64,000 bases of DNA. It comes from Mobula hypostoma (Eukaryota). Each line of letters starts with the position of its first letter. Within the stretch, counting starts at the first letter, position 1. Shown here in pieces: positions 9,011 through 57,300 of the stretch. Location: assembly GCF_963921235.1 (NCBI RefSeq), contig NC_086097.1, positions 114,826,001 through 114,890,000 of the forward strand, read 5' to 3'. A program made the translations under genes and the position numbers. Under the pieces are notes generated by a model. That model did not search any database. It was not told the origin of the DNA and worked only from the letters and a program-made list of their open reading frames with translations.

Positions 9011-9046
9011 AGTCGACGTTTCCGGCTGAGACCCTTCGTCAGGACT
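9011..9046 (-). ncRNA. Minimal type I hammerhead ribozyme motif
   Basis: Reverse complement reads AGTC-CTGACGA-AGGGTCTCAGCCG-GAAA-CGTC-GACT. Confidence 0.7.
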
Positions 9047-9729
9047 AACTGAAAGAAGAGCTAGTAAGAGATTTGAAAATGGGAGGGGGAGGGGGAGATC
9101 TGAAATGATAGGAGAAGACAGGAGGGGGAGGGATGGAGCCAAGAGCTGGACAATTGATTGGCAAAAGGGATATGAGAGGATCATGGGACAGGAGGCCTAG
9201 GGAGAAAGAAGGGGGGGGAGCCCAGAGGGTGGGCAATAATGGATGAGATACGATGGGGAAGTGGGGCATTAACGGAAGTTAGAGAAGTCAGTGTTCATTC
9301 ATGCCATCAGGTTGGAGGCTACCCAGACGGAATATGAGGTGTTGTTCCGCCAACCTGAGTGTGGCTTCATCTTTACAGTAGAGGAGGCCATGGATAGACA
9401 TGTATAGAATAAGTATAGAATGGGTATAGTATAGTATAGTATAAGCATAGAATGGGTAGCCTCCAACCCGATGGCATGAACACTGACTTCTCTAACTTCC
9501 GTTAATGCCCCACCTCCCCCTCGTACCCCATCCGTTATTGCCCATCCTCTGGGCTTCCCCCCTCCCCCTTTTCTTTCTCCCTAGGCCTCCTGTCCCATGA
9601 TCCTCTCATATCCCTTTTGCCAATCAACTGTCCAGCTCTTGGCTCCATCCCTCCCCCTCCTGTTTTCTCCTATCATTTTGGATCTCCCCCCCCCCCACTT
9701 TCAAATCTCTTACTAGCTCTTCTTTCAGT

Positions 9730-11529: not shown

Positions 11530-14500
11530 ATCAGTATATCAGGAAGGAATAATCACCACTGCCTAGACCACTGCATGGTATCCTGTACTCCCAAATGAAC
11601 TGACGATTCATGGGCCCACCGAGCAAGTGCCAATAATGACATTTGAGGATGGTGGCTGTTAGGAGAGGATGAGGCAGCATGAAGTTCCCCCTTGTTTCGG
11701 ATGGACTCATCGATTTCCTTATGCCCTCCTGGGAGACAATGTTGCTTGGCAATTACCGTTCGTGATGGCAAGGGTATAAAGACAGGTTCCCATTTTGCCT
11801 TTTCCTTTCTTTTTCTTTTTAAATCTTTTTATTAAATAAGTATACAAAAAGGTAAGCCATATAGACACTAATACACTGTTAGAATATAATAAAATTACAG
11901 AAGATATTAATACAAAAAAATACTACAAACAATGTAATTTAAACATAACATACCAAGGTAACATAATAGTATACTGATTTTATATATATATATCAATAGA
12001 GAAAAAGAAAAAAAAACCCCCAAAAAAACCCACCGTGCAACTAACTAAAAGCAAAGCAAAGCAATGGGGTAACTTGAAACCAAACAGAGTTAAACTTAAA
12101 ATCACGTCCTCAATCCCGACCTCCATTAAAAACAGTAAAAAAAACAAGCAGGGTATATATTACATTAAATGAAAATATTGAATAAAAGATCTCCAAGTCT
12201 GTTCAAATTTAAATGAGGAGTCATAAAGATTGCTTCTAATTTTCTCCAGATTCAAGCATAATATCGTCTGAGAAAACCAAAAAAAGGTAGTTGGAGCATT
12301 AAGCTCTTTCCAATGTTGTAAGATGCATCTTTTCACCATTAAAGTAAGAAATGCAATCATTCTACGGGCTGAAGGGGAAAGATTACTGGAAATTTTAGGT
12401 AGTCCAAAGATAGCAGTAATAGGGTGAGGAGAGATATCTATATTCAATACCTTGGAGATAATATTAAAAGTGTCTCTCCAAAAAGTTTCCAAAGTAGGAC
12501 AAGACCAAAACATATGAGTTAAAGAGGCTATCTGCCCCGGACATCTATCACAAAAAGGACTAATATGAGAATAAAAGCGCGCTAACCTATCTTTGGACAT
12601 ATGTGCTCTATGAACAACTTTAAATTGAATTAGGGAATGTTTAGCACAGATAGAGGAAGTATTGATTAATTGTAAAATCTGCCCCCAGTCATCCACAGAA
12701 ATGGTAAACCCCAATTCCTGTTCCCAATCTACCCTAATCTTATCAAATGGAGCTTTCCTAAGTTTCATAATAATATTATAAATCATTGCCGAAGCACCTT
12801 TCTGACATGGATTAAGGTTGATTATAGTATCTAAAATGTATGTAGGAGGAAGCATTGGAAAGGAAGAAAGTATAGTACTTAGGAAATTTCTAACTTGTAG
12901 ATATCTAAAAAAATGTATTCTTGATAAGTTATATTTATTAGATAATTGTTCAAAAGACATAAGAGAACCATCTAAAAATAAATCCAAAAACCGTGAAATA
13001 CCCTTAGTCTTCCAAGTTTGAAAAGCACGATCCGTAAAAGAGGGAGGAAAAAATGTTACCTAAAATAGGAATCGCTAACCCAAATTGATTAAGATCAAAA
13101 AATTTTCTGAATTGAAACCAAATACACAAGGTATATTTAACTATCGGGTTAGACACCTGTTTAAGGCGTTTCAAATCAAAAGGAAGAGAGGAACCTAAAA
13201 TAGAGCCAAGTGTAAAACCCTGAACAGATTGTAATTCCAATGCTACCCATTTAGGAATGGATAGTATATCCTGGTCCAGTAACCAGAATTTCATATGTCG
13301 AATATTAATTGCCCAATAATAAAATCTAAAGTTAGGTAATGCTAAGCTTCCATCTCTCTTAGCTTTCTGTAAATGTATTTTACCCAGTCTCGGGTTTTTA
13401 TTCTGCCAAATAAATGAAGAAATTTTAGAGTCAACTTTGTCAAAAAAGATTTTGGAACAAAGATTGGTAATGCCTGAAATATATATAAAAATTTTGGCAA
13501 AAAAAAACATCTTTAATGCATTAATACGACCAATCAAAGTTAAATATAAAGGAAACCATTTAGATGAGAGTTGAGTAATATGGTCTATTAATGGTAAAAA
13601 GTTAGTCTTAAATAAATCTTTGTATTTACAAGTAATTTTAATCCCAAGATATGAAAAATAATTATTAATCAATTTAAATGGAAATTTATAATATAAGGGA
13701 AGTTGTTTATTAATCGGAAAGAGTTCACTCTTACTAAGATTTAATTTATAACCTGAAAAAAGACCAAATTGTGCTAATAACTCTAAAACAGCCGGGATGG
13801 ATTTTTGAGGATTAGAAATATATAAAAGTAAATCATCAGCATAGAGTGATAATTTATGGGACTTTAAGCCTCGAGTTATCCCAGTAATATTTGGAGATTC
13901 TCGAATGGCAATTGCAAAGAGGTTCTAATGCAATATCAAATAATAAGGGACTAAGAGGACAACCTTGTCGAGTACCTCGAAAAAGAGGGAAAAAAGGTGA
14001 ACTTAAAGAGTTAGTACGGACCGAGGCCACAGGAGAATAATATAACAGCTTAATCCAGGATATAAATTTCGAGCTAAAATTAAACATTTCAAGCACCTTA
14101 AATAAATAAGGCCATTCTACTCTATCAAAAGCTTTCTTGGCATCTAAAGAGATAACACACTCAGGAACATTTTGTGAGGGAGTATAAACGATATTTAACA
14201 GTGTACAAATATTATAAAAAGAGTAACGACCTTTAATAAAACCCGTTTGGTCTTCCGAAATAATAGAGGGAAGTACTTTTTCTAATCTATTTGCTAATAA
14301 CTTAGAAAAAACTTTAGAATCAACATTTAATAAAGATATTGGTCTATAAGATGCACATTGAGCAGGATCTTTATCCTTCTTTAATATTAAAGAAATTGAC
14401 GCTCTATTAAAAGATTCAGGAAGTTTACCAAGTTTCAATGAAGCCTCAAAAACCCTACAGAGCCAAGGGATTAATGAAGGAGCAAAACATTTATAAAATT

Positions 14501-16200
14501 CTACGGTAAACCCATCAGGGCCAGGAACTTTCCCCAAATTCATAGAGAAAATAACATTCTTAATCTCATCCATGGTAATGGGAGTATCTAACATAGAAGA
14601 CATATCCCATTTTGCCTTTTCCAAATGGAATAAACACCTTCCTAATACCAAAAGCAAATTTGCCAAAGGGCGTCGTGATAGAAGTTCCTGTTAACAAATC
14701 AGTTCCCAAAAGGTTTTCAGGTAGCTGGGAGATGAGCATGGGGACAGTCTCAGGAGCTCCCTGTCCGATTGGGAGGTAGATCTTTGTTCATACAGCACCA
14801 GTAAGCGGTCCCCCATATCCCTGGATACAGACTTGCTCCCCAGTTTTACGGATCTCGATTCCCATGTAATAAAGTAACCCCAGCCTCAGTGACCACCAGG
14901 GCGATTTGCCGCTGCTTATTGCCATGTCACCACCAAAGCGTAATAGGTACATACGGCCTCAGGTCTTCCTCTGGGATGCTGGAAATATGAGTTGCTATAG
15001 CAACAGCAGTGGTCCCAGAGCCCTGGCTATACCCCTAGGCAATGGGGTGAGTAAACCGCCATCCAGGGTCAAATTCAGCCAAGCCCAGATATCACCATGG
15101 AAACTTCTGGTTTTTGGGATTAACACTGGGGCTGGAAGGGCAACCAATACCTTTGTCTGGGTCATAAAATGCAGCCTGCTGGGTCACAATACTCATGCTA
15201 TAACACGTAAAGAACACCAGTAGGTACATCATTAATCTTTTCCTTATCCAGCTTTACCTTCAGCAGGGACAGAAATATTTCCTTTCTACTAAGACGGGGG
15301 GGGGGAGGGGGAGGGGAGGGGAGGGAGGGAGGGGGTTTGACGTTCTCTCCCCCCTCCCCTCCCTCCCAAGACAGGAGGAAGGGCTCGTGGATACCTGCTA
15401 CCGAGGCACAGTCATCGGCTGCTTTGGGGCATTTCTTGTTCCATTCATCATGTGCTTAGAATGCTCCTGCTGCTACAAGGATTTAAAAACAACCTGTTCC
15501 CGATCTCCATCTGATGCTTCAAGTTGGGCTAATAGACTGGTAGTCTCGGCGACAATCTAACAAAGCCAACAAGGCTCCTCTCAACCCTATTCCATCAATC
15601 GTGTGCGTGTACCCAGGGAAAGGAGGACAACTTCAGGGTGGTTATAAATGGCAGATTGTGTTTCCATATCACGGAGGTGTGAAATAGCCTCCAGCGGGAG
15701 GATTCCAGGGGCAAGGAGACATAGCCTAATCCAAAGGGTCAGGGTAACGAGTACGGACAGCTTTCAGGGAGCATTTAGCTCCATCAGCCTGACCAGCCCA
15801 CAATTCAGCCAGGACCAATGGGTCTGTCATTAACAGCCCTAAGTGAATCAATTCATTGACATTAAAACAACAATTGGGAGGCTCCTAAATCCCATGGGCG
15901 GGTGAGCCAATTGGGCAAGGAGTCCCCTGGCCACTGACGTAGTCTTTGGGCTAAATCGTGTAACTCGGTGAGGGTGTAGTTACGATAGGGGTCTCAGTAG
16001 TAGTAGGGACAGCCGCTGGAGCTCGATTTTGTTCATCAGCATTCCGGCATTCCTCTTTTCCTTTTATGTGAAAGAGGGAATGAGCCTTGATTAAATTGCT
16101 TTTGTCCTCATCCGAATCACCATCATACCAGGTATCCCGTCACCCACGGCAGTCTGTTCAGGCGTGGATCATTCAGCACGCTCCGTTTCATTTAAAATAG
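11530..16200 (-). mobile_element. Class III (ERV-S/ERV-L-like) endogenous retrovirus relic: gag, pro and deleted pol, interrupted by an L1
   Basis: Minus strand 14970-14625 gives EDLRPYVPITLWW*HGNKQRQIALVVTEAGVTLLHGN...IQGYGG...ISQLPENLLGTDLLTG...FGKFAFGIR. Across the L1 it continues EKAKWEPVFIPLPSRTVIAKQHCLPGGHKEIDESIR, then integrase-type ARWAHESSVHLG. Gag-like AVRTRYPDP...PWN...EAISHLRDM lies near 15660-15780. Outer boundaries approximate. Confidence 0.8.
11806..14604 (-). mobile_element. 5'-truncated L1-clade LINE (ORF2 RT plus C-terminal domain, 3' UTR, A-rich tail)
   Basis: ORFs 13854-14666, 13004-13672 and 12160-12987 contain PGPDGF, YRPISLLN, GTRQGCPLSP, YLGI and CDRC...HMFWSC; YADD at ~13835-13846. 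18-bp TSD TCCCATTTTGCCTTTTCC at 11788-11805 and 14605-14622. Confidence 0.93.
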
Positions 16201-16552
16201 TGAACTGAGAACTTAGAGGCCAACTCAAGCTGCAGTTGCTTGTTTTCCTCAGAGAGTTCAACTATTCTGATACTCAACTTCTACAATGTAGTCATTAAAA
16301 TCCACCCAACTTGAGGCAGAGAATCTCTCTTAGAATGAAAGCCGATATGCTTAAGACATTGTGATACTACACACTGAAGCTTAATGTCAGACAATTCAAC
16401 AAGTACCTTCTTCCAACGTCTGGCAGGACCCCATTTACTCAAAACATTAGCCAGTGAACCAAAACCCTCAGAACGTGATTTTTAATCTATTCAATATACA
16501 TATACTGTAATTGATTTACTTATTTATTATTAATTTATTTTTTTCTTCTTCT

Positions 16553-19348
16553 GATGAACTGAGAGCTTGGATACATACATGGAATTATGATGTAGTGGCC
16601 ATTACAGAGACTTGGCTGGCACCAGGGCAGGAATGGATTCCCAATATTCCTGGATTTCAGTGCTTTAAAAGGGATAGAGAGGGTGGAAAAAGGGGAGGAG
16701 GGGTGACATTACTGGTCAGGGATACTATTACAGCTACAGAAAGGGTGGGTCATGTAGCAAGATCCTCTTTTGAGTCAGTATGGGTGGAAGTCAGAAACAG
16801 GAAGGGAGCAGTTACTATATTAAGGGTATTATATAGGTCCCTTGGTAGCAGCAGAGATACAGAGGAGCAGATTGGGAGGCAGATTTTGGAAAGGTGCAAA
16901 AATAACAGGGTTGTTATCATGGGTGACTTTAACTTCCCTAATATTGATTGGCACCTGATTAGTTCCAAGCGTTTAGACGGGGCAGAGTTTGTTAAGTGTG
17001 TCCAGGATGGATTCCTGTCACAGTATGTGGACAGGCTGACAAGGGGGAATGCCATACTAGATCCAGTACTTGGTAACAAACTGGGTCAGGTCACAGATCT
17101 CTCAGTGGGTGAGCATCAGGGGGACAGTGACCACAGCTCTCTGGCCTTTAGCATTATCATGGAAAAGGATAGAATCAGAGAGGACAGGAAAATTTTTAAT
17201 TGGGGAAGAGTAAATTATGAGGCTATAAGGCTAGAACTTGCGGGTGTGAATTGGGATGATGTTTTTGCAGGGAAATGTACTATGGACATGTGGTCAATGT
17301 TTAGGGATCTCTTGCAGGATGTTAGGGATAAATTTGTCCCGGTGAGGAAGATAAAGAATGGTAGAGTGAAGGAACCATGGGTGACAAGTAAGGTGGAAAA
17401 TCTAGACAGGTGGAAGAAGGCAGCATACATGAGGTTTAGGAAGCAAGGATCAGATGGGTCTATTGAGGAATATAGGGAAGCAAGAAAGGAGCTTAAGAAG
17501 GGGCTGAGGAGAGCAAGAAGGGGGCATGAGAAGGCCTTGGTGAGTAGGGTAAAGGCAAACCCCAAGGCATTCTTCAATTATGTGAAGAACAAAAGGATGA
17601 CAGGAGTGAAGGTAGGACCGATTAGAGATAAAGGTGGGAAGATGTGGCTGGAGGCTGTGGAAGTAAGCGAGGTCCTCAATGAATACTTCTCTTTGGTATT
17701 CACCAATGAGAGGGAACTTGATGATGGTGAGGACAATATGAGTGAGGCTGATGTTCTGGAGCATGTTGATATTAAGGGAGAGGAGGTGTTGGAATTGTTA
17801 AAACACATTAGGGTGGATAAGTCCCCGGGGCCTGACGGAATATTCCCCAGGCTGCTCCACGAGGCGAGGGAAGAGATTGCTGAGCCTCTGGCTAGGATCT
17901 TTATGTCCTCGTTGTCCACGGGACTGGTACCAGAGGAACTGAGGGAGGCGAATGTTTTCCCCTTGTTCAAAAAAGGTAGTAGGGATAATCCGTGTAATTA
18001 TAGACCAGTGAGCTTTACGTCTGTGGCGGGAAAGCTGTTGGAAAAGATCCTTAGAGATAGGATCTATGGACATTTAGAGAATCATGGTCTGATCAGGGAC
18101 AGACAGCACGGCTTTGTGAAGGGCAGATCGTGTCTAACAAGCCTGATAGAGTTCTTTGAGGAGATGACCAGGCATATAGATGAGGGTAGTGAAACGGATG
18201 TGATCTACATGGATTTTAGTAAGGCATTTGACAAGGTTCCAGTGTAGACTTATTCAGAAAATCAGAAGGCATGGGATCCAGGGAAGTTTGGCCAGGTGGA
18301 TTCAGAATTGGCTTGCCTGTAGAAGGCAGGGAGTAGTGGTGGAGGGAGTACATTCAGATAGGAGGGTTGTGACTAGTGGTGTCCCACAAGGATCTGTTCT
18401 GGGACCTCTACTTTTCGTGATTTTTATTAACGAACTGCATGTGAGGATAGAAAGGTGGGTTGGCAAGTTTGCAGACGACACAAAGGTTGGTGGTGTTGTA
18501 GTTAGTGTAGGGGATTGTCGAAGATTACAGAGAGACATTGATAGGATGCAGAAGTGGGCTGAGAAGTGGCAGATGGAGGTCAACCCGGAGAAGTGTGAGG
18601 TGGTACACTTTGGAAGGACAAACTCCAAGGTAGAGTACAAAGTAAATGGCAGGATACTTGGTAGTGCGGAGGTGCGGAGGGATCTGGGGGTACCTGTCCA
18701 CAGATCCCTGAAAGTTGCCTCACAGGTAGATAGGGTAGTTAAGAAAGCTTATGGGGTGTTAGCTTTCATAAGTCGAGGGATAGAGTTTAAGAGTCATGAG
18801 GTAATGATGCAACTCTATAAAACTCTGGTTAGGCCACACTTGGAGTACTCTGTCCAGTTCTGGTCGCCTCACTATAGGAAGGATGTGGGAGCATTGGAAA
18901 GGGTACAGAGGAGATTTACCAGGATGCTGCCTGGTTTAGAGGGTATGGATTATGATCAGAGATTAAGGGAGCTTGGGCTTTACGCTTTGGATAGAAGGAG
19001 GATGACAGGAGACATGATAGAGTTGTACAAGATATTAAGAGGAATAGATAGAGTGGATAGCCAGCGCCTCTTCCCCAGGGCACCACTTGTCAATACAAGA
19101 GAATATGGCTTTAAGGTAAGGAGTGGGAAGTTCAAGGGGGATATTAGAGGAAGGTTTTTTACTCAGAGAGTGGTTGGTGCCTGAGTCAGTGGTGGAGGCA
19201 GATAGACTCGTGAAGTTTAAGAGACTACTAGACAGGTATATGGAGGTATTTAAGTTGGGGGGTTATATGGGAGGCAGGGTTTGAGGGTTGGCACAACATT
19301 GTGGGCCGAAGGGCCTGTAATATGCTGTTCTATTCTATGTTCTCTGTT
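16553..19348 (+). mobile_element. CR1 LINE, near-complete ORF2 (APE endonuclease + RT) with one frameshift at ~18240
   Basis: ORFs 16511-18247 and 18228-19184 contain VAITETWL, MGDFN, SDH, KSPGPDG, YRPVS, QHGF, DFSKAFD, GVPQGSVLGP and FADD. Tail of TTCTATG-type repeats; sits in a TTC-repeat target. Confidence 0.96.
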
Positions 19349-31179: not shown

Positions 31180-31560
31180 CATGACATTTTCTCAGCTTCG
31201 TGCTGAACTGAGACTGAGGCTGTGGCCTGCTCTGGGCTCCGTGATGTGAGGGCCCGCCACGTTTGCTCAGTTCTGCTTTGAACTGAAGCTGAGTCTGCGG
31301 CCTGCTCTGGGATCCGTGATGTGAGGGCCTGCCATGTTTGCTCGGCTCGGAGCCGAACTGAAGCTGAGGCTGCGGCCTGCTCTGGGCTCTGTGTTGTAAG
31401 GGCCTGCGACATTTACTTGGCTCTGCGCTGAACTGAGACTGAGGCTGAGGCTCTACCTGCTCTGGGCTCCGCCACTGAAGGCTCTCCGATGTTTACTCAG
31501 CTCTGTGCTGAACCGAGACTAAACTGTGGCCTGCTCTGTCTGCTCCGGGCTCCATGTCTA
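31180..31560 (+). repeat. Minisatellite, ~63-65 bp unit, 5-6 degenerate copies
   Basis: GAACTGAGACTGAGGCTGTGGCCTGCTCTGGGCTCCGTGATGTGAGGGCC...GTTTGCTC is repeated. Confidence 0.85.
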
Positions 31561-34069
31561 TGGACTCAGTTTTTTTCTGAATGCTATTTGCTTAATTTTA
31601 TTGTTTGGACAATTTGTCTTTTTTTCTGTCTGCACATTGAGGTTTTGATAGTCTTCATTTTTTATGGGTTCTTTTGGGTGTCTTTGTTTTGTGGCTGCTT
31701 GTAAAGAGACATATCCCAATGTATACATTTTTTGATAATAAATGTACTTTGTACTTTGAATTTTCTGAATTCAGGTTCATGGCCACACCAACCCTCCAAT
31801 ACAAACATTTCATATCTCCAAATCATCCATTTTCCTGACGAGCAATATCCTTTCAGCCTCTTGGCTTCTCCATGATCCAAAATCCTCTCTGGCGCCAAAT
31901 CTGTCCCTCTTTCCAATCTCAACCTGTGATCCTACATCTGAACTCAGGTTTCCCACTGTGATCTGATTTGTCCTCAGCTGATCTCCAGTCTACCCCTGTG
32001 ATCCAAATGGTCGGCATTCCTCAATCACTTTCCCACTCTTCCATGATCTTCCAGCATGTGTCACCTCCATCTTCTGATCTTCCTCCATGGTCAGTTCCAC
32101 CAGTAGAAGCTCCTCTTTAAGTTCCCATCACCCCTAACTCTCCAGGCTCTGCTCTCCTTTGGAAAAAGGTGACTGCAGACAATTGATGGGTACTAGGCAG
32201 CATACGCACCTTGTATGGAGACAACCTTGATCTAACGGACTGTCTCATGATTTCAAATTTCAAACTAAGCAATGGCTGGAGACTCAGGGGCAGCCTGTCC
32301 TGGGTGTGTGAGTCAGTGGGGAAGGGGCTTGTTCTGTTGTTGCTGCCTGTGTTGTTCTGCTGAATGTTGTTGGCACGTGATGTTGTCACCAGAATGTGTG
32401 GGGACACTTGCAGGCTGCATACCCTATGTTAAACTGCAGAGTGCCGCACTGCCAGGAATGCCCTTTTCAGATAAAATGTTCTTTTTCTTTGTGATCTAAA
32501 TAAAAGACTCCAAAGGATGTTACGGAGTTCTGCTAATCTCCTGGCTGATAACAATCCTCAACAAACATCATCGCAACAGATGAGCTAGCTATTCGCCAGC
32601 TGTGAGTCCTTGCAATGCTCAGGTTGGCAGCTGTTTACTACACAGTAAAATACTTAATTGGTTGGAAGACACTTAGGGATATCCTGATGTTATTGAAAAA
32701 CATTGCAGGCATACATAAGGGCCATAGCAACCTTGATGACCACTGGCTTTGTTAGCTAAATATACTCTCAGTGAGCACTTTATAAGCTACACTTGTTCAA
32801 GTGCTCGTTAATGCAAATATCTAATCAGTCAATCATGTAGCAGCAACTCAATACGTAAAAGCATGCAGACGTGGTCAAGACATTCCGATGTTGCTCAGAC
32901 TAAACATCAGAACAGGGAAGAAATGTGATATAAGTGACTTTGACTGTGGACTGATCATTGGTGGCAGACAGGGTGGTTTCCCGGGATTTTCATGCACAAC
33001 TGTCTCCAGGGTTTACAGAGAATCGTGCAAAAAAACAAACAAAAAATCCAGTGAGCAGAGTTCTGTGGGTGAAAACATCTTGTTAATTAAAGTGTTCAGA
33101 GGAGAGTGGCCAAACTGGTTCAAACTGACAGGAAGGCGACAGTAATTCAAATGAACATGCATTACAACAGTGGCGTGCAGAAAGGCGTCTGTGAATGCAC
33201 AACACTTCGAACCTGGAAGTGGATGAGTTACAGCAGCAGAAGGCCACGTACAAACTCCCAGCAGCCTCTTTATTAGTGTAGCCCCCCCGGTAAGCCTCAG
33301 GCTCACTCAACTCACTGTCGTCTAGGGGGAGCAGCCTTCAGCCCCGCCAAACTGGGTAATCAAGTTGGTGTGGACGCTGTGCGATGTACCCCATCCGCAA
33401 TACACCATATGTGATTAAATGATTACAATTTATAGATATTACTGGAACTATATAATTAATAGATATAAAATATGAAAAAGAAAGTAAAAGGCACCAAACT
33501 TATCAAAGTTCAATCTCTTCGTGCACAAACAGATGGAGCTCTAGTAACGATCCTCTTCTCACCATTCAATCCCTTCCGACCACCTCGATGCGCTGCCTGG
33601 GACCAACCACGGTCGTCGACCAGACGCTCCACACGAGTCTGTCTTCGTCTCCTCTCCTCGCTGAACACCCTGGACCTTGGACTCCGGCTCGGGGTCCGCC
33701 CCGTCGGCCAGCTCACAGCATCGCGTCCTCTCTCTCTCTCTCCCCATCGCGCCTTCTGCCCAAAAACCCGCGTATCACAATAGCTTACAGACACACAAGA
33801 AAGAATAACATCTATCCCAATTGGTTAGCAACCGAACACAACTCCTCTATAACCCAAACAAGCTGCTAGCGAGAGAACTTTCTCAGCAGTTAACATAACA
33901 AAGAAGCCATTTTGATTAGCCTACGCAGTAACATAAAAGAAGAAACCCCTTACACTCTCCCCCCACTAAATAAAGTCATGTCCTCATGACTTCTAAATAA
34001 ATCGCCAAGCATTCCTGCAGACACAAAAACCCAATCCAGGTACAAACAGTGACATTGCTCCCCAAACAG

Positions 34070-36290
34070 TGGATCTTACATCCGGTCCCACGGGTGCTAC
34101 ATAGGCCAACCTATCTGGGAGTTTCCTAATCCTCTAAGACCTCCATACCCCCTCACCTAAACCCTTCAGGCTCAGACACTACTGGGGATACCTTGGATTT
34201 GCTTACCAAATCCTCTTTTGATCTCTCACTCATGCTCCCACTGCACTTCGGAGCCCCCTGTCCTGTGTCCGGGGCTCCGCTTCTTTTCCTTCAGGGTCCT
34301 GCAGTAACCCAGGCTGCCCACAGCTAGCCCTCTCCACTGCACCTGACTCAGTGGAGGAAGGGCCAAAGGTCTGTTCCTCAATCGAGGGGAAGTTAGCGAA
34401 AGGCAGCATGTACCACACATCCAGCGCATCATTCTTCGAATCCATATTCTTCCTCATTTCCTCAATCAGTAGCTGCTGTTTGATTTTCTCCGAACTGAAG
34501 CACTTAGCCTGGGCTGCCTCTGCAACCTCTTCAGCCTCCTGCAGTCGAGACGTCAGCTTCTCATCCGACTCCTCCAACTCTCACCCCAGGCTCAGTAGTT
34601 CTGACGCACGCTTTGTGTCCATCTCCATCTGGGACGCAATTACACCACCAGCTTCTTCCAATCTGTTCTGGATCAATGTCTTGATTTTCTGCTGATCCTT
34701 TCAAAGGTTGGTCATTGTTTTGTCTCTCTGGATTAATTCATCAGTAAATGACCGCAGTTTTGGCTTGGAATTCCGTTTCTCCGTCTCCACTTTGACGAGC
34801 ATGGACTCCAATTCTTCAAGGGTTGTCCTGGGCTCCGGCACTCGCCTCACATCATCGTCCTCCAAGGCGAATCCAAACCCTAGGCAATCATCCACATACG
34901 CCAGAACTCCAAACACCTCCACATTCCTCATGGTCTTCCTCATGCCCTGCGGGAAGGTTGCAGGGGCTCCGGATATGCCCTGGGGCATCTTTTCGGATCC
35001 AAAGAATCCTAGGGAACCTATAACAGCCATCTTCTCCTTGTCAGCCTCACTTATCTGAATCTGGCAACATTCACTCCTCAGATCCTGCACATTAAATCAC
35101 GTCGCACCATTCAGACAGATCATTGCGTCTTCGGCCCTCAGGGCCGTATTCTGGTCAATGACAGAGCACCTGTTCAGAGTCCTATAATCCACACACACAC
35201 TGCCTACGTCTTCCACGGCTACAGGGGCCAGTTGCTGCGACCTCTCTCTCACCGAGGTGTCTTCAGTGGTCAACTCCCCTCCCTCGTGGCATTTCGGAGT
35301 GTCTACTAAGAGGGTCTCACCCTCAGATACTTCCCTCAGGCCGTAACACAATGGGGTCTCTTTTAAGTTCGGTACCAGCCCAAGGCTGTTACACACGTCC
35401 TCATGAGCAGCTCGAAACGCTGGGTGCACAGACAATGCCCCTATGAACTCCAGGTTCACTAACCAATCATCGTCTTCTGGATAATCACTGGCACTGGTAC
35501 CCCAAACCTCCAGTGCCCTTAATGTTGTCAAGGGTAAATGCTTCAGACACTGGTTGTAAAATGAACTGTACAACAACTTGACCTGCGCCCCGGTGTCGAG
35601 GATGGCTTTAGCATAGCTTCCATCTATTCGTAATGACACACTGGGGCGTGGTCCCTCTAAGCCTTCAGGAATAGGGTCTTTTCCTTTCAGAAGTTCCTTG
35701 GTACATTGCTGGGAACATGCTCCCCCAGAGACCCCAAGCCGTTCCCCCACTGGGCCTCCACTAAATTTCCTGACACCTCTCTGATCAGCTGAACAACTGA
35801 GGGAGGGACTGATCCCCTGAAATGATCCCCCTGGCACTGCAAGCAATTTAGCCGCCCTCCTAGCCAGAGAAGATACACTGAAAGCTTTCCCCCCGCTTTC
35901 AGATTACCGGCAGCTGTCACTACGGTGTGATTGAACCTGACAGTTCTAACACCGTCAACAGCCCGCCTACTCAAACTTTCAACCAATCCCTGTCACTCTC
36001 CCTCAACCAAGCACTGCCACTCATCTAACAACTGAGAGATCCGCTCCGCCCACATCTCGAACGCCTCTGCCCCTTTTGGGGTGGACAATATCCCAAAAGC
36101 CAGGTGGAGCCTGCCATAGCTGGAACATTTATTCGCAGACACTATCTCCGAATTAGACCACTCTTTCCTCTCTCTCCTAACAGTATGGACAGCCCGTGGT
36201 CCTACCACCAACTCATCAGTGCCAGTCTGAACTCGAACAAAGACTCCACCCAACACGCATGCAGTAATAACCAGCAGTCCCAGAGAGACA
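34070..36290 (-). pseudogene. Deleted gag-pol: PNMA-type gag, aspartic protease, truncated RT, myosin-like segment, pol C-terminal tail
   Basis: YGRLHLAFG...GAEAFEMW (gag), ILDTGAQV (protease), [21 protein letters not shown] and AYVDD (RT), RS*RIRKLPDRLAY (tail). No RNase H or DDE core seen. Confidence 0.88.
34419..34840 (-). pseudogene. Captured sarcomeric myosin heavy chain rod fragments (MYH16-like)
   Basis: [46 protein letters not shown] / RLEEAGGVIASQMEMDTKRASELLSLG*ELEE / [30 protein letters not shown], matching conserved MyHC rod motifs LAKVEKEK, RLEEAGGATSAQIE..KKRE.E...RRELEE and RLQEAEE..EA..AK..SLEK.K. Confidence 0.85.
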
Positions 36291-38676
36291 CATATTACTG
36301 ATTTAAACAGGGCAATCAAGCAGCACACAACTGAATTCAATCCCGGTTCCCAGTCGAGCCCCCAAATGTAGCCCCCCCCCCCCCCGGTAAACCTCAGGCT
36401 CACTCAACTCGCTGTCGTCTAGGGGAAGCAGCCTTCGGTCCCGCCAAACTGGGTAATCAAGTTTGTGTGGATGCTGTGTGATTGTACCCCATCCCACCAA
36501 ATAACAGACAAAAAAACCATATGTGATTAAATGATTAGAATTTATAGATATTACTGGAACTATATAATTAATAGAGATAAAATATAAAAGGAAAGTAAAA
36601 GGTGCCAAACTTATCAAAGTTCAACCTCTTCATGCACAAACAGTTGGAGCTCTAGTAATGATCCTCTCTTCACTATTCGATCCCCTCTGACCACCTCAAC
36701 CCACCACCTGGGACCAACCACGGTGGTCGACCAGACGCTCCACAAGAGTCTGTCTTCGTCTCCTCTCCTTGCCGAAGACCCTGGACCTTGGACTCCGGCT
36801 CGAGGTCTGCCCCATTGGCCAGCTCACAGCATCGCATCCACTCTCTCTCTCCCCATCACGCCTTCTGCCCAAAAACCAGTGCATCACAATAGCTTACAGA
36901 CACACAAGAAAGAATAACATCTATCCCAATTGGTTAGCAACCGAACACAACTCCTCTATAACCCAAACAAGCTGCTAGCGAGAGAACTTTCTCAGCAGTT
37001 AACATAGCAAAGAAGCCATTTTAATTAGCCTAAGCAGTAACATAAAAGAAGAAACCCCTTACATACGTTACAGGAGGTACCTAATAAAGTGGCCACTGAG
37101 TGCATGTCTGCTGATGCAAATGGAGCTTCTCTTTGTGAAATGTGACACTCCCTGAGGTGCTGCCAGAGCGGGTAATTTTCATGGCTCCATTGATACAACA
37201 CAGAACAGGTAATTGTCAATCAACTCAGTGCTTTGGTTCATCCGACTCCAGTAAAACAAATGACTGGAGAACACTGCAGGCTAATTCCCACAGTTAGGAA
37301 CTTTATGACCGCCAGAATCACATTACCTCCTGGGTTCCAGCACGCAGGAACCTGCCTGACCTCCAAGACAAATGTATTTGATATAAAATGTGCATGGACA
37401 GCAACTTGCACGGCAAGCTCATTAAAATTGATGGACAGAAAGTCACAGGGAGCACACCCGGAATTTCTTGATCCGAGCTGTCACACTGCCCGAGGAGGAG
37501 AAATTGCAAATGTACTATAACATACACAAAACACGTGTCTCAGAATTCAGAGAAAACTTTGAACTGGACCACGGAATGAATTGAAACTGTGAAGAGCCTA
37601 ATTTCATGCATCTATTTTCACATACTCTTTATTAATATGAATGCAAATTCCACTGCATGAAAGAGAAAAATGGTTCAAATGGTTCAATTTAATATTGGAA
37701 AATGTATGCAGTTCTTATTGAAATTCTTACTCTTTGCAGACGTAAACCAGACAGAACAAAGCACCAAAGAATGAATGACAGAAACATCAGAATCTCAAAG
37801 CCCCCCTCCCCCCCACGCACAAGCAACAAGAGAAGCATCAACGCTCCCCCTCCCCTCACTTACACCAGAAAAAGCACTCCCCCACCTCCACCATGCAAGC
37901 TGCCAAAGAGAACTTGGTCTAGACTCCACCAAAAACTACAGTCCAGAACCCAGTAAGTCAGTACCTCAAACAGGCTCTCTCTCATTAGCCAGCGAGTGGA
38001 GTAAAAGCAGAACAAAAAGGGCAGCTTTTAATTGAACACTAATGATCACATTGCAGTAATTAATAAAGGCTGAAGTCACTTTCTTCCACTAGCTTCTTTG
38101 AGAGATGTGAAGGTTTGATAGGCAGATCACTCTGTCAGTCACAATGAAACACTATTAGCTACTTTTAAATTAGCCAGTCCAGTGATTCAGAAAGCTGAGC
38201 TGTTCAAACCATTAGTATTTGAAGAGGTTGCATGCTCTTCATGTATCTATACCATAACGATGATATTGTTTTAAGACTGAGGAGACACACTTAAACATTA
38301 TACACGGTAGCATTCGTGGTCAGTGCAATCCATTACAGTGCCAGCAATTGCCAGTTGGGGTTCGATTCCTGCTGTTGTCTGTAAAGAGTTTGTACTTTGT
38401 CCCTGTGATCCAGGGGATTCTTCTTGGTGCTTTGGCTTCCTCCCACAATTTGAAGACGTATCGTTAGCGTTAGGTTTTAGGTTTAGTAAACTGTAGGCAT
38501 ACTATGTTGGCACGTAAGTGTGGTGACACTTGTGGGCTGCCCTCAGTACAATACTTAGCGATTTGATTTGATGCAAATGGCACTGTATGTTTTGATGTAC
38601 CTGCGACAAATAAAACTGATTGCTCTCCTTGTTAAATTCTACTCAGTGACAGATATTTGTTTGCTACTTCTTTGTT

Positions 38677-40620
38677 CAGTTCCCCTGCACTACCACCCTC
38701 CTCCATCTGGCAGAACTGGTCCTCACGCTCAATAATTTCTCCATTGGTTCCTCCAACTTTTTCCTAACAGTTCCCCTCCACAACCACCCTCCTCCAACTG
38801 GCAGAACTAGTCCTCAAGCTCAACAATTTTTCCAGCAGCTCCTCCCAATTTCTTCAAATTCCCTGGCCCTAACTGTCTCATTTTCAACATGGATATCCAA
38901 TCCCTATACACTTCTATCCCCTATCAAAGAGGCCTTAAAACTCTCTGCTTCTTTCTCAAAAAAAGATCTAAACATTTTCCCTCCATCACCATCCTCCTCC
39001 ATCTGTCAGAATTGGTCCTCACCCTCAATTGGCTCCTCCAACTTTCTCAAAACTAAAGGGCACCCCAAGTGCCCCAGCTATGAGTGCTTTTTTGTTGGCT
39101 ACAAAGAGCAGTACATGCTCCAAGCCTGCCCTGCTAATGCTCCGCAACTCGTTCTGCACTACATTGATTAATGCATTGGTGCTGCTTCATGCACCCATAC
39201 TGAGCTCATCAATTTCATCAAATTTGCTTTCAACTTCCACTATGCCTTTAAATTCACTTAGTCCATTTCTGACACCACTCTCCCTTTTTGAGATCTCTCT
39301 GTCTCCATCTCTGTAGAAAAACTATTGACATCTTTTATAAACTTACCGATACCCAAGGTTATCTTGACTATACCTCTTCCCACCCTATCTCCTGTAAAAA
39401 TGCTATTCTCTTTTGTCAGTTCCTTTGACTCCACCAAATCTGTTCCAAGCATGAGGCTTTCCTTTCCAGGACATCAGAGATGTTCTCTTTCTTCAAAGAA
39501 TGGGGTTTCCCTTCCTCCACCATTGATGCTGCTCTTACCTGCATCTCCTCTATTTCACAGACATACATGCCCACGCCATCGTCCCACCACTTTAACAAGG
39601 ATAGAGTTCCTCTTGTCCTCACCATCCACCCCATAAGTCTCTACATCCAATACAACATTCTCCATAACTCCAGCCATTTTCAAAGGGATCCTACAACCAA
39701 ACACATCTTTACCTCTTCTCCCTCCCTTTCTCTACTTTCCACAGGGAGTGCTCCCTTCATGATTCCCTTATTCTTTCATTATTTCCCACTGATCTCCTCC
39801 CTGGCACGTAGCCCTACAAGCACAGAAATACTACACCTCTCCATTCACCTCCCTTACGTTCAAGGCCCCAAGCAGTCCTTCCAGGTGAGGCAGCCCTTCA
39901 CCTGCTAACCTGTAGGGGTTGCCTATTGTTTCCAGTGCTCCTAATGCAGCCTCCTCTACATATTTTATAACTCCAAATCAAACCAAAAGAAAAACATAGG
40001 AGTCAGGGCTAAACATGTCTGCTTTGTTTCACTTTAGTGAGGCTCAAAATACACTACAGGTGAGACCCATCATTAATTGGGGCCCACTTTGTCAAGCACC
40101 TCCGCTCCATCTGCCAAAAGCCGAATTTCTGAGTGGCCAGCCATTTTAATTCCGATTCCCATCCCCATGCTGACCTTTCAGTCCATGGCCTCCTCTTTTG
40201 CTAATCACAGGGTAGAGGAGCAACATCTCATATTCTGTCTGGGTAGCCTCCAACCTGATGAAATATTGATTTCTCTTCCCCCTTCCCCTCCCCCGTCACT
40301 CTTCTTCTAATCTCCACTGTAGGCTCTTACCTCTTCCCCTCACCTCCCCTGATACCCCCCTTCTTCCCTTTCTTCCATGGTCTACTCTCCTCCTCTCAGA
40401 TTTCTTCCTCGCCAGCCCTTTTACCTTTCTCACTCACCTGGCTTCAGCTATCATCTTCTAGTTAGTCCTTCCTTCCCTCCCCTACCTTTTTATTCTAGCA
40501 TCTTCCCATTTCCTTTCCAGTCCTGAAGAAGGGTCTTGGCCTGAAACTTTAACTGTTTATTCATTGCCATAGATGCTGCCTGACCTGTTAAGTTCCTCCA
40601 GCATTTTATGTGTTTTGCTC
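38677..40620 (+). mobile_element. Degenerate Penelope-like element (RT, GIY-YIG, 3' end)
   Basis: Colinear with 56030-57803 (FFKEWGFPSSTID, DRVPLVLT, EEQHLIFCLGSLQPD). 5' end carries two extra copies of a ~70-90 bp RT segment. Confidence 0.85.
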
Positions 40621-52365: not shown

Positions 52366-54359
52366 GAAAGAAAAACAAGCACGGGAAACAGACAACTCAG
52401 GGTCAGCCATCGTATGCATAGCACCCTGTTACGTTTCCACTGGCATTTTGTGAAAAGAAATTTACAAAGATGATGCCAAGAATGGTGACTATTAGTTGTA
52501 CAGAGGGCTTTACCAGGCTGTGATTGTTCTCTTTGGAAAGGGGCAGCCAAAGATAGATAAATGTAAAAATATGAAACTATGAGAGATTTAGGAAGAGTGA
52601 ACAGGAAGGATCTATGTCTCTCAGCAGAGAAGTTAATCATGGTACATAGCACCAGGATAGTGTAGTGGCTAGTCTGACATTATTATGGCTCGGGGTGTTC
52701 CAGAGCTTGGAGTTCAATTCCGATACCCTCTGTAAGAAGCTTGCATATTCTACATGTGACCGCGTAGATTTCTCTGGTGCTCTGGTTTCCTTCCACAGTC
52801 CAAAGATGTACCGGTTAGCAATTGGTCATTGTAAATTGTCTTGTGATTAGGCAGGGGTTAAATAGATGGGCAGTGCAGCTCGCTGGCATGGATGGCCCTA
52901 TTCCACTCTGTATCTCAATAAATAACATAAACTGGTTTCTATAGATTTACTGGCAAAAGGGAAAATGCTACCAGCATTTAATTTAGTGCTGGAGTTCTTT
53001 GTGGAAATTATGTTTGGAACGATGTCAAAAGCAGAAACTCTTGGAGAAGGCAGGAGAATGGTCATGAAAGGGATAATAAATCAGCCATGATCGAATGATG
53101 GAGCAGACTTGATGGGCCTAATTCTGCTCCTAAGTCTTAGGGTCTGATTTGAAATGAAGCTACATCAGCATTTGATATGCCATAAACTGAAGTTCACAGA
53201 CTAAGAGTTGAGAAATCAAATTAATCAAAATATTGGGATTAAATGTCTTCTGCTAACCTTGAGATTAACAGGCATCTGCTCTTGGACCAGGATTTTTCTT
53301 CTGCTAAATGCATCAATGTGGCTGACGGCTGCATAATGCAACATCAGAGCTGTCCTTTCATAAGTAGCAAGCCGTATTCCAAGATTTGCCACATGCGCGG
53401 CTGAGATGTCTTACCAAGCTCACTCCCTATCAAAGCTTGCATTGAAATTAAATGTCTTTGTCAATCATTTCTTCCTATTCCATTCAACGGAGCTGTTGTA
53501 CTTGCACTATATTAACCTACACAGGATCAGTGGCCATAGTTCCCTGCATGTTCCAGTAAGGGGTCTATCAAATCAGCACAGGGACAGCTGGCTGCATGAA
53601 CTGCAATATGGAAGAGGCCTCTAGTGATAAAGCCAGTGCCAGTGTTTCTCTCTTTGAACTTGCACAACAAAATGTGTGTGGATCCTGGGAGAACTGTTGA
53701 CAACTGAGCAAAAGATTCACGCCAATCAGTGCATATCAGTTGTCTAACTGCCTTTTTTTTGGATGATTTGGGAAGAATATGTTAATTAGTTAATTCAACA
53801 GGTGGTTTAGTAAAATGAATAAGCTGGCATGCACATAATGGACCTAAAATCTCCTTCTGTGCTATGAATCCTTATAATTCTAAGATTATTATTCTCTTTA
53901 CCACTTTGAACATAGAACATGGGACTCTACAGCACAGTACAAGCTCTTCAGCCCATGATGTGCCGACATGAAGATTATTTTAGACAATCCCTCCCCCCAC
54001 ATAGCCCTCTTTTTATTATCCTTGTGCATATCTAAGAGTTTCTTAAATGCTACTAATGTAGCTTCCTCTTCCGTCACCCCTGTAGGGCAATCCACACACC
54101 ACCACTCTGTGTAAAAATCATACCTCTGACTTTCATTCCCCCCCCATACTTTCCTCCAACTACCTTAAAATTATGCCCCCTCATTTTAGCCATTTCCTCC
54201 CTGGGATATAGTCTTTGGCTATCCACTCTACCTATGCCACATATCAAGTCACCTCTCATCCTCCCTCACTCCAAAGAGGAAATCCCTAGCTCACTCAACC
54301 TATTCTCATAAGATATTTAAACGCAAACAACACTATTCACTACTGCGAAGCCTCTTCCG

Positions 54360-57300
54360 GTGATGCCTACACCGAAGAAGTTTAGATCCTCTCTTCGACG
54401 GGAGTTCAGTGAAACCATCTCTCACTGCTCCCCATCTGTTATTTTTTCGGCTCTTCAACTTTTCAACCACACTTTGACTCAGACTCGCTATTACAGCCAT
54501 ATATCCTTTCTTGGAACATGCCTCCGTCGCCAACTTACTCCAGTTGGCTTTAGGATTCGTTTCCAAGCCTCTCAATTTGGACCTTCTGAGGATCCCAGGT
54601 ACTCACATTTTATTGACTCTGCCTCTCGCCGCTTCTCCCGTCAAGCTCTGAAGGCGACTCTCTCCGCCATGAGGAGGTACTTGGTGTCCCTATCCCAGAC
54701 CCTTCCACACCTTCGGGACATTTTCTTTGCCGTCTGTAATGGTCCTACCCGTTATTTCATCCTCCGTCGGATTCACGCCTGCAATCGCCGTTTTTTTGAC
54801 TTTGTCATGTTAGGCAAAGGTCGCAAGATCCTACATCTACGGACTCCAGAGCCTGCCGGCCCCGACGCTAGCAGGCATGAACTTCAGATTGCGGCCACTG
54901 CCATTGATCTCGCCGGCTCCAGCACCTCAGGGCATATTCAAAACCCGGACTCCAGCAACGACCATGGACACCTTCACAGCGATTGCGCAACCACCAACTG
55001 CGACTCCAGCCTTGAACTCCAGGCCGGGTCTTTATGTGCTGCTATTGTGACTCCCGTCTCCCCTTCCCCCACCACCACTCCGCAGCCCCGTCTTCCTCAG
55101 ATCCCACCGTCAACTCCTGGGCCCTCAGAGGCTCCATCTTCCTCTCACCCCAACCCTCCCCTCTCCACTGACACCCCCAGCCTCCCCCTTCCCCCCTCTG
55201 ATCCCAGCTCTCATCCATGCCAGGTCTTTATCATCCCCTCCGACCTTCAACTGTCGGAGGCAGAACGCTCTGTTCTCAGTAAGGGCCTCACCTTTGTCCC
55301 CCTTCGCCCACACCTCAGCGAGTTCCGTGTTCGCCATGATGCGGAACTTTTCCTCCGCCGTCTCCGTCTCCGAGCCTACTTCTTCGGCAAGGACTCTTCC
55401 ACCCCCACCGATGACCCCTTCTCCCGTCTTCAACCCTCCTCTTCTTCATGGACACCCCGCTCTGGTCTTCTGCCTGCTCTGGATCTCTTTATTGCCAACT
55501 GCCGACGGGACATCAACCGTCTCGACTTTACCGCACCTTGTCCCCATTCCAACCTCACTCCTTCGGAACGCTCTGCTCTCCACTCCCTCTGCACTAATCC
55601 TAACCTTATTATTAAACCCGCCGATAAGGGGGCTGCTGTTGTAGTCTGGCGTACTGACCTCTACATTGCTGAGGCACAGCGACACTCGCGGATACCTCCT
55701 CTTATTTACCCCTCGATCGTGACCCCACTAAGGAGCACCAGGCCATTGTCTCCCACACCATCACCGACTTTATCCGCTCAGGGGATCTCCCATCCACTGC
55801 TACCAACCTTATAGTTCCCACAGCCCACACTTCCCGTTTCTACCTCCTACCCAAGATCCGCAAACCTGCCTGTCCTGGCTGACCTATTGTCTCAGCTTGC
55901 TCCTGCCCCACCGAACTCATTTCTGCATACCTCGACACTGTTTTATCACCCCTTGTTCAATCCCTTCCGACCTATGTTCGTGACACTTCTCACGCTCTTA
56001 AACTTTTCGATGATTTTAAGTTCCCTGGCCCCCACCGCTTTATTTTCACCATGGATGTCCAGTCCTTATATACTTCCATCCCCCATCAGGAAGGTCTCAA
56101 AGCTCTATGCTTCTTTTTGGATTCCAGACTTAATCAGTTCCCCTCTACCACCACTCTGCTCCATCTAGCGGAATCAGTCCTTACTCTTAATAATTTCTCC
56201 TTTGGCTCCTCCCACTTCCGCCAAACTAAAGGTGTAGCTATGGGCACCCGTATGGGTCCTAGCTATGCCTGCCTTTTTGTTGGGTTTGTGGAACAATCTA
56301 TGTTCTGTGCCTATTCTGGTATCTGTCCCCCACTTTTCCTTCGCTACATCGACGACTGCATTGGTGCTGCTTCCTGCACGCATGCAGAACTCGTTGACTT
56401 TATTAACTTTGCCTCCAACTTTCACCCTGCCCTCAAGTTTACCTGGTCCATTTCCGACACCTCCCTCCCCTTTCTAGGTCTTTCTGTCTCTGTCTCTGGA
56501 GACAGCTTATCCACTGATGTCTACTATAAGCCTACTGACTCTCACAGCTATCTGGACTATTCCTCTTCTCACCCTGTCTCTTGCAGAAACGCCATCCCCT
56601 TCTCGCAATTCCTCCGTCTCTGCCGCATCTGCTCTCAGGATGAGGCTTTTCATTCTAGGACGAGGGAGATGTCTTCCTTTTTTAAAGAAAGGGGCTTCCC
56701 TTCCTCCACTATCAACTCTGCTCTTAAACGCATCTCCCCCATTTCACGTACATCTGCTCTCACTCCATCCTCCCGCCACCCCACTAGGAATAGGGTTCCC
56801 CTGGTCCTCACCTACAACCCCACCAGCCTCCGGGTCCAACATATTATTCTCCGTAACTTCCGCCACCTCCAACAGGATCCCACCACTAAGCACATCTTTC
56901 CCTCCCCCCCTCTCTCTGCATTCCGCAGTGATCGCTCCCTACACAGCTCCCTTGTTCATTCGTCCCCCCCATCCCTCCCCACTGATCTCCCCCCGGCACT
57001 TATCCGTGTAAGCGGAACAAGTGCTACACATGCCCTTACACTTCCTCCCTTACCACCATTCAGGGCCCCAAACAGTCCTTCCAGGTGAGGCAACACTTCA
57101 CCTGTGAGTCGACTGGGGTGATATACTGCGTCCGGTGCTCCCGATGTGGCCTTCTATATATTGGCGAGACCCGATGTAGACTGGGAGACCACTTTGCTGA
57201 ACATCTACGCTCTGTCCGCCAGAGAAAGCAGGATCTCCCAGTGGCCACACATTTTAATTCCACATCCCATTCCCATTCTGACATGTCTATCCACGGCCTC

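Follow-up and report, generated by a model that had tools for sequence, protein, structure and literature searches.

A Gypsy-type retrotransposon family of rays with sarcomeric myosin rod sequence, probably captured in the place of integrase

The stretch of DNA analysed here, called the window throughout, comprises 64,000 nt of the genome of the ray Mobula hypostoma (GCF_963921235.1, NC_086097.1 positions 114,826,001-114,890,000). On its minus strand, at 37063-33277, lies what is very probably an old, dead and non-autonomous Ty3/Gypsy-type long terminal repeat (LTR) retrotransposon of ~3.8 kb, whose truncated reverse transcriptase (RT) runs into a piece of myosin rod, referred to below as the cargo. 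The explanation we favour, and hold with high confidence, is that this copy belongs to a non-autonomous Gypsy family in which spliced host myosin mRNA was captured in the place of integrase, amplified together with the element and later shrunk by deletions.

Myosin cargo and its donor gene

An initial annotation of the window had proposed that three non-adjacent segments of the sarcomeric myosin rod follow the YVDD motif of a Gypsy RT, and our comparisons agree with this. At 34841-34419 the minus strand reads from the RT in frame into 141 codons that match sarcomeric myosin rods alone in a phmmer search of PDB; the three segments following YVDD are non-adjacent on MYH7 (~951-995, 1144-1180 and 1385-1434), and the second and third share one ELEE at their join. 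Searched against 177,635 distinct PDB sequences, the 141 codons gave 11 matches at E<=1, of which the top nine are sarcomeric myosin heavy chains, led by an MYH7 1361-1425 chimera (E=1.7e-6). The top matches in this search are, as had been anticipated, myosin heavy chains and not generic coiled coils or retroelement proteins. A phmmer search of 1.84 billion representatives returned 27 matches, with genuine myosins weak among them (E ~1e-5 to 5e-4), while a word-indexed protein search with the insert returned three, all of them gene models derived from the element itself. The window copy is not recognised by Pfam Myosin_tail at E<=1, and a first local tblastn for the donor against the 30 loci of a Myosin_tail search, which are mostly non-muscle myosins, found nothing at E<=1e-3. 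To judge from these matches, the cargo certainly derives from the rod of a sarcomeric, and not a non-muscle, myosin heavy chain.

A genome search with a genuine myosin rod, which also returned the host sarcomeric genes, located a donor on contig C68 at ~14.66 Mb. The donor reads ..DLTRELEDLTDRLEEAGGVTASQ in a first exon (exon A, L096 2322-2410, followed by GT) and IEMNKKRESELLRLRRELEEA.. in a second (exon B, L089 from 92, preceded by AG), with ~2.7 kb between the two. These residues, DLTRELEDLTDRLEEAGGVTASQ/IEMNKKRESELLRLRRELEEA, are those of the element and are unlike those of all other host paralogs sampled. Against an in silico join of exons A and B, six of the eight element copies tested aligned ungapped over the junction at 85.4-92.7% identity, the remaining two having no junction part in the fetched sequence:

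L085: 92.2% identity over 153 nt
L086: 92.7% identity over 96 nt
L074: 89.8% identity over 98 nt
L073: 87.8% identity over 98 nt
Window copy: 87.5% identity over 96 nt
L023: 85.4% identity over 96 nt

Since the copies are ungapped over an exon-exon junction, the cargo was copied from spliced RNA, and the earlier claim that it carries no introns holds for the ~2.7-kb donor intron, absent in these six of the eight copies tested. The donor locus has additional rod exons that are absent from the element, so the C68 gene is the source of the sequence and not its recipient. The junction alignments end just past ELEE, in the middle of exon B, and the join of segments 2 and 3 is therefore no splice event; it was made either by deletion or by template switching where ELEE is repeated, as the initial annotation had suggested. 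The donor gene, at C68 ~14.66-14.683 Mb, has several exons and encodes a divergent sarcomeric rod; it lies ~0.65 Mb from a tandem myosin cluster at 15.31-15.90 Mb.

The cargo had been described as MYH16-like, which stands as a resemblance and fails as a statement of ancestry. Motor and rod queries from a shark myosin-16-like protein placed the MYH16 ortholog on contig C36 at 112.72-112.75 Mb, where the exons are 75-93% identical over most of the shark query, apart from a single motor exon at 69%; identity of the C68 donor to the shark myosin-16-like protein is 51-67%. In a maximum likelihood tree, for which sequences were aligned with the shark protein as anchor, the donor falls into one clade with every element variant (bootstrap 100), the classical sarcomeric genes make up a second (bootstrap 100), and these two clades join apart from myosin-16, a placement in which long-branch attraction is possible. 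Likeness values of the least-decayed copies are 0.47-0.54 for shark myosin-16 versus 0.43-0.52 for a lungfish myosin-7-like protein, a slight advantage for myosin-16. With exon B as the query, the myosin-named full-length matches are mostly 'myosin-16(-like)' at 61-67%, with myosin-7-like, myosin-3 and myosin-13 at 62-65%, which is not decisive. The idea that the donor is the MYH16 ortholog was ruled out, as that ortholog lies on C36 and the C68 donor, at 51-67% identity, groups with the elements; on sequence grounds the donor is a divergent sarcomeric paralog, separate from the MYH16 ortholog of the same genome.

Layout of the window copy and its relatives

Remnants of the element were mapped by tblastn with its closest full-length relative, P0006, a Gypsy Gag-Pol from Hypanus sabinus containing RVT_1, RNase H, H2C2 and rve domains. 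The features of the window copy, from its 5' to its 3' end, are:

36367..37063, minus strand: 5' LTR, which starts TGTAAGGGG (TGTAAG) and closes with a G-run and then CTACA
36340..36366, minus strand: primer-binding-site-like stretch directly after the 5' LTR, read from the letters
35774..36112, minus strand: gag-like remnant (tblastn, P0006 residues 155-326, 26% identity, E=2e-4)
35280..35819, minus strand: aspartic protease region (ILDTGAQ) and following linker (P0006 437-691, 36%, E=9e-29)
34845..35270, minus strand: truncated reverse transcriptase (tblastn, P0006 residues 814-988, 47% identity, E=1e-35)
34665..34820, minus strand: myosin rod segment 1 (~MYH7 951-995), with a stop, TGA, at 34703-34701
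34569..34664, minus strand: myosin rod segment 2 (RLEEAGG...ELEE; ~MYH7 1144-1180), with a stop, TGA, at 34583-34581
34419..34568, minus strand: myosin rod segment 3 (RLQEAEE...ALD; ~MYH7 1385-1440)
34230..34418, minus strand: tail of the frame (62 codons, ...VGA, stop at 34232-34230), non-myosin, derived from the 3' terminal part of the parent
33955..33967, minus strand: purine-rich tract directly preceding the 3' LTR, read from the letters
33277..33954, minus strand: 3' LTR, a direct repeat of the 5' LTR

The two LTRs, in direct orientation and with TG..CA ends, are 89.97% identical over 688 columns with 18 gaps, and the stretch behind the 5' LTR may be a tRNA-Pro primer site. The copy is truncated and decayed, its RT stopping at ~P0006 residue 988. 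Within the RT remnant YVDD lies at 34898-34887 and an in-frame TGA at 35099-35097, and the minus-strand frame that opens at 35096 takes in the RT remnant including YVDD, ~14 more RT-derived residues and then the myosin. Pfam RVT_1, although a genuine match, does not pass its threshold in the window copy (E=3.3e-4, 20.9 bits against a curated cut-off of 29.6), and RVP (E=0.0022) likewise stays under the cut-off, as does a weak PNMA match (E=1.3e-4) to the gag-like part of L073, a relative with an intact frame. There is no further copy of the family within the 64-kb window.

Five loci, L083-L087, belong to the same family by both flanks and are more complete than the window copy. In these older copies the order is protease, RT, RNase H, which are respectively 51-65%, 71-76% and 50-63% (residues 1083-1272) identical to P0006, and RNase H ends ..YRPGS.NIDVDVLSRRVPEG.., leading straight into the rod at ~885 in shark numbering. 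The rod is unbroken over 881-1107 (shark MYH16 numbering) in L083 and L084 and over 886-1167 in L085, where it spans the gap between segments 1 and 2. Other variants hold less. A longer variant keeps a small piece of RNase H and a rod from ~948, and its representatives L073 and L074 bridge most of the gap between pieces 1 and 2; in L023 the RT continues to ~P0006 residue 1009 and the rod begins at ~921-925; and in the window type the RT reaches ~988, the rod begins at ~945 and the stretch between IQNRLE and EAGG is missing. Every examined variant that has both pieces 2 and 3 has the ELEE join.

Because the older copies keep RNase H together with a contiguous rod, the ancestor lost integrase alone, and its layout was gag, protease, RT, RNase H, myosin rod and the parental 3' end, with the myosin in the place of integrase only. 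The proposal that myosin replaced RNase H and integrase is thus sound for integrase and mistaken for RNase H, which is kept in older copies and was lost later by the window copy. The contiguity of the rod in the older copies also implies that the three pieces of the window copy arose by later deletions, which leaves the ELEE join as the only one that may go back to the capture.

Spread of the family and state of its cargo

When the 423-nt insert was searched at the DNA level against the 3.48-Gb Mobula hypostoma genome, 844 first-look candidates came up. The 40 that were scored are all near full length and 90-92% identical, and they are spread over many contigs. Thirty loci were compared with the window copy across the RT/myosin joint: 27 are collinear with it, and the other three (L015, L016 and L023) have ~140-150 additional bases there. 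With the Hypanus protein P0004, which had matched the insert, as the query, 2747 first-look candidates of the longer variant were found; each of the 139 scored spans almost all of P0004, and 81 of them are stop-free in their 215-240 matched codons. In two full-length copies of this variant, L073 and L074, the paired LTRs are 89.7% and 93.8% identical respectively, and the copies are flanked by target duplications of 4 bp, TCTA in L073 and CTTG in L074. Each has a single open frame, of 836 and 812 codons respectively, which starts at the LTR edge and takes in the gag-like part, protease, deleted RT, myosin and tail. In both, the protease motif is DPG, not DTG. The chimera is, as far as these sequences indicate, an LTR-flanked family of hundreds to thousands of copies and not a lone insertion. 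The LTRs, the target duplications and the 844 and 2747 candidates agree with the earlier suggestion of a gene-transducing Gypsy-type LTR family that carries a host coiled coil, and the many LTR-flanked copies returned by the genome-wide insert search point to mobilisation of the family as a whole rather than to one capture.

Gene models that contain the same RT/myosin chimera come from Mobula hypostoma, M. birostris and Hypanus sabinus; Mobula and Hypanus are both Myliobatiformes, of separate families. The gene models that represent the element are P0002-P0005, P0056-P0061, P0065, P0069 and P0080, and in Mobula and Hypanus these bear automatic names such as 'myosin-16-like', 'myosin heavy chain, skeletal/striated/cardiac muscle-like' and 'putative uncharacterized protein MYH16'. 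Pieces of the element that are annotated as myosins may consequently inflate the number of myosin genes counted in rays. The model P0005, named 'transmembrane protein 192 isoform', includes part of the element. Contigs from public runs under a second species label cover the element at a likeness of at least 88%. In runs X5, X18 and X19, which are guessed to be RNA, the contigs cover 29-30 of 30 bins at this likeness, and three of them span the RT/myosin joint, which is no demonstration of expression.

The cargo is without sign of use and decays like the rest of the element. Its pairwise ratio of nonsynonymous to synonymous substitution (dN/dS) is 0.62-0.70 in frame versus 0.53-0.81 in the two wrong frames, so that no constraint is detectable on the myosin part, the in-frame values lying within the range of the wrong-frame control. 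The in-frame ratio had looked low initially and was rejected as evidence of selection when this control gave a like range; the protease-RT part carries at most a weak signal of selection. Among 29 sister copies of the window type, eight have the terminal stop alone within 289 codons, and each of the two TGA codons of the window cargo is a stop in three and a sense codon in 26. Stops that are private or recurrent among sister copies in this way fit the earlier view of them as decay.

It could be argued that the element nevertheless draws some benefit from the myosin coiled coil or from the unbroken long frame, by multimerisation of Gag-Pol or as a shield against nonsense-mediated decay, an idea compatible with capture of the kind we favour. 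In the abundant subfamilies several internal deletions, each independent of the others, have left a single frame running between the gag-like part and the tail, frames of 812 and 836 aa persist in copies whose LTRs are 6-10% apart, and 81 of the 139 scored matches are, as noted, free of stops over 215-240 codons. The two long-frame copies were, however, chosen for length, and searches based on protein favour open copies; the dN/dS of the cargo is no different from that of wrong frames, and L073 and L074 have DPG in the place of the protease motif DTG. We think such a use unlikely. A little more credence, though still a low one, is given to the broader view that the success of the chimera is non-accidental, either as subfamilies would survive only with one long frame through the gag-like part, the myosin coiled coil and the parental tail, so that the cargo would serve the element for multimerisation or against RNA decay, or as a Gypsy lineage of rays habitually swaps its integrase for host mRNAs and amplifies them. 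If the latter were true, it would be an animal counterpart of gene-shuffling Pack-type elements. The first 1200 bases of an RBM25 locus in this genome bear no likeness to the family or to P0006.

Route of capture and known systems

The likeliest route of capture would be two RT template switches between a co-packaged host myosin mRNA and the element RNA. The captured rod would have run from ~885 to ~1175 and then from ~1380 to ~1440 (shark numbering), copied from the spliced mRNA of the C68 gene at ~14.66-14.68 Mb. As the resulting chimera is without integrase, its enzymes would be supplied by a relative, and we suggest that a Gypsy family related to it, and possessing integrase, did the copying in trans. 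Internal deletions during amplification would then have given rise to subfamilies, that of the window losing RNase H, the remainder of RT and two portions of the rod.

The window and 296,623 bases of loci, including ~50 loci with copies of the family, gave no integrase match at E<=1e-5. An integrase query against the whole genome gave 16,057 first-look candidates, and all 150 that were scored are 76-85% identical to the query; this integrase-bearing Gypsy family, related to P0006, is very abundant and has open frames of up to 1714 aa, several members exceeding 1400 aa. One broken integrase-bearing relative, L097, has a tail-like ..DVWYLFPFAD.. downstream of the integrase core, and its DNA is 71.5% alike from the tail (window ~34055) into the 3' LTR (~33849). 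Over the shared 3' region as a whole, from the tail past the purine tract to the beginning of the LTR, L097 and the family are ~70-79% identical in DNA. An abundant integrase-bearing relative of this sort could supply the enzymes.

Three other explanations were weighed. That nothing was captured, and that the cargo is like myosin by chance as one coiled coil is like another, might be argued from the missing Pfam Myosin_tail match in the window copy and from the modest phmmer E-values against genuine myosins. It is refuted by the 85-93% nucleotide identity to two host exons, ungapped over their splice junction, and contradicted by the clade of elements and donor with its bootstrap of 100; as the window copy itself matches the two spliced exons at 87.5% over 96 nt without a gap, we rule chance likeness out and would give it practically no weight. 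On the mechanism implied by the initial annotation, the three non-adjacent pieces would be the outcome of capture itself, through three separate template switches that stitched three distant parts of the rod behind YVDD. Such a layout is indeed present in the window copy and in 26 of its 29 sister copies, and pieces 2 and 3 meet at an ELEE midway through donor exon B, hence not by splicing. This reading is nonetheless contradicted at the joints of RT to piece 1 and of piece 1 to piece 2. The older copies hold a contiguous rod, from ~881/886 to ~1167/1173, in addition to the third piece (881-1107 in L083 and L084, 886-1167 in L085), with RNase H ahead of the rod, and the longer variant (L073, L074) spans most of the gap; the claim had to be given up and three switches at capture appear very improbable.

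An equally slim chance is accorded to a route through a long interspersed nuclear element (LINE), in which a LINE-made processed myosin pseudogene landed in an integrated Gypsy copy and the composite was then transcribed and amplified. The machinery is at hand, with LINEs that have endonuclease and RT in the window itself and intronless copies resembling non-muscle myosin in the genome. The cargo, however, is an internal fragment of the rod, with neither the 3' end of an mRNA nor a poly(A) at its 3' joint; it substitutes for integrase instead of being added to the element; and it is in frame with RNase H in older copies and forms one open frame into the tail of the element.

Several observations weigh against capture and amplification as we reconstruct them. 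Microhomology at the joints is seen at the protein level only: at the 5' joint DEEQES faces EQEN of the myosin, and at the 3' joint a D ahead of VWY is common to both sequences. The sole integrase-bearing relative sampled is ~70-79% alike in the 3' region, which leaves it a candidate helper at most. At the window copy a clear target duplication was not found (acgta versus ctaat). The first-look candidate counts (844, 2747 and 16,057) are not copy numbers. Lastly, a motor-domain query with a stricter first look found no exon near the C68 donor locus; the donor gene may be very divergent or rod-only.

Host sequence inside LTR elements has precedents. LTR-mediated retrocopies of animals have been described (Tan et al. 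2016, Genome Res 26:1663, PMC5131818) as recent or polymorphic, 15 of them in fly, and have been attributed to template switches at short similarities; the abstract of that work makes no mention of amplified families, and its introduction cites MaLR, moved by MERVL, as an example of a non-autonomous LTR element. The myosin cargo is like these retrocopies in being an intronless copy of a host mRNA between LTR-retrotransposon sequence, which can be in frame and co-transcribed, and unlike them, as far as they are portrayed there, in forming a high-copy family with subfamilies in two ray families, with similarity at the joints hinted at on the protein level. Crocodilian endogenous retroviruses also capture host genes (Chong et al. 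2014, Retrovirology 11:71, PMC4299795): according to that report, nectin3 replaces env, there are six nectin3 insertions with purifying selection on the cargo, capture took place before speciation and spread is inferred to have been by retrotransposition. There, as here, host mRNA lies inside an LTR retroelement at the cost of a viral gene. The ray family differs from that case by its hundreds to thousands of copies, by a gene fragment that replaces integrase, by the lack of any selection found, and by being Gypsy and not an endogenous retrovirus.

In acutely transforming retroviruses (v-onc) spliced host sequence takes the place of replication genes, frequently in a fusion protein that includes viral parts, and the virus becomes dependent on a helper. 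In contrast to these, the cargo of the ray family is a structural coiled coil with no known effect on growth, and the element itself is an old, endogenous resident of the germ line. Non-autonomous LTR elements without enzymes are familiar as large retrotransposon derivatives and terminal-repeat retrotransposons in miniature (LARD/TRIM), which are presumed to be moved in trans by autonomous relatives. MaLR and LARD/TRIM have no host cargo, whereas the ray family has one, and its sampled relative is ~70-79% alike. Plant LTR retrotransposons of the maize Bs1 type hold host gene fragments inside an LTR element, as here, in a plant host.

No description of a myosin-carrying family was found in the literature searched, which included passages of a shark and ray genome preprint, supplements being outside the search. 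The mechanism is already known in kind, and what sets the family apart is how far it was amplified, that a structural coiled-coil fragment stands in for integrase, and the group of hosts in which it occurs. The family offers a clean vertebrate case, in which the donor gene, one exact splice junction, the replaced domain and the history of deletions can be read in one genome, and, being common to two ray families, it provides material on how non-autonomous Gypsy elements spread and shrink.

Some further features were seen in passing. At L031-L033, L038 and places on C18, C50, C184, C157, C21 and C12, some Myosin_tail matches are long, intronless and interrupted by stops. L031, L032, L033 and L038 presumably resemble non-muscle myosin II, and the intronless matches look like processed pseudogenes, some of them duplicated, that are unrelated to the cargo of the element. 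Elsewhere in the window there are two LINE-type elements at 12160-14690 (minus strand) and 16511-19184 (plus strand), one with RVT_1 and zf-RVT and the other with Exo_endo_phos and RVT_1. At 54321-57088 (plus strand) a G+C-rich stretch holds long open frames in which RVT_1 matches weakly and YIDD occurs; they are unrelated to the myosin-carrying family and may belong to a Penelope-like element. Tandem repeats in short arrays lie at 31187-31520 and 38677-38858, with units of 75-80 bp (3-4 copies) and of 91 bp (2 copies). Beside the full-length element copy at L073, positions 7625-9379 (minus strand) hold a 584-aa open frame that is like a LINE RT.

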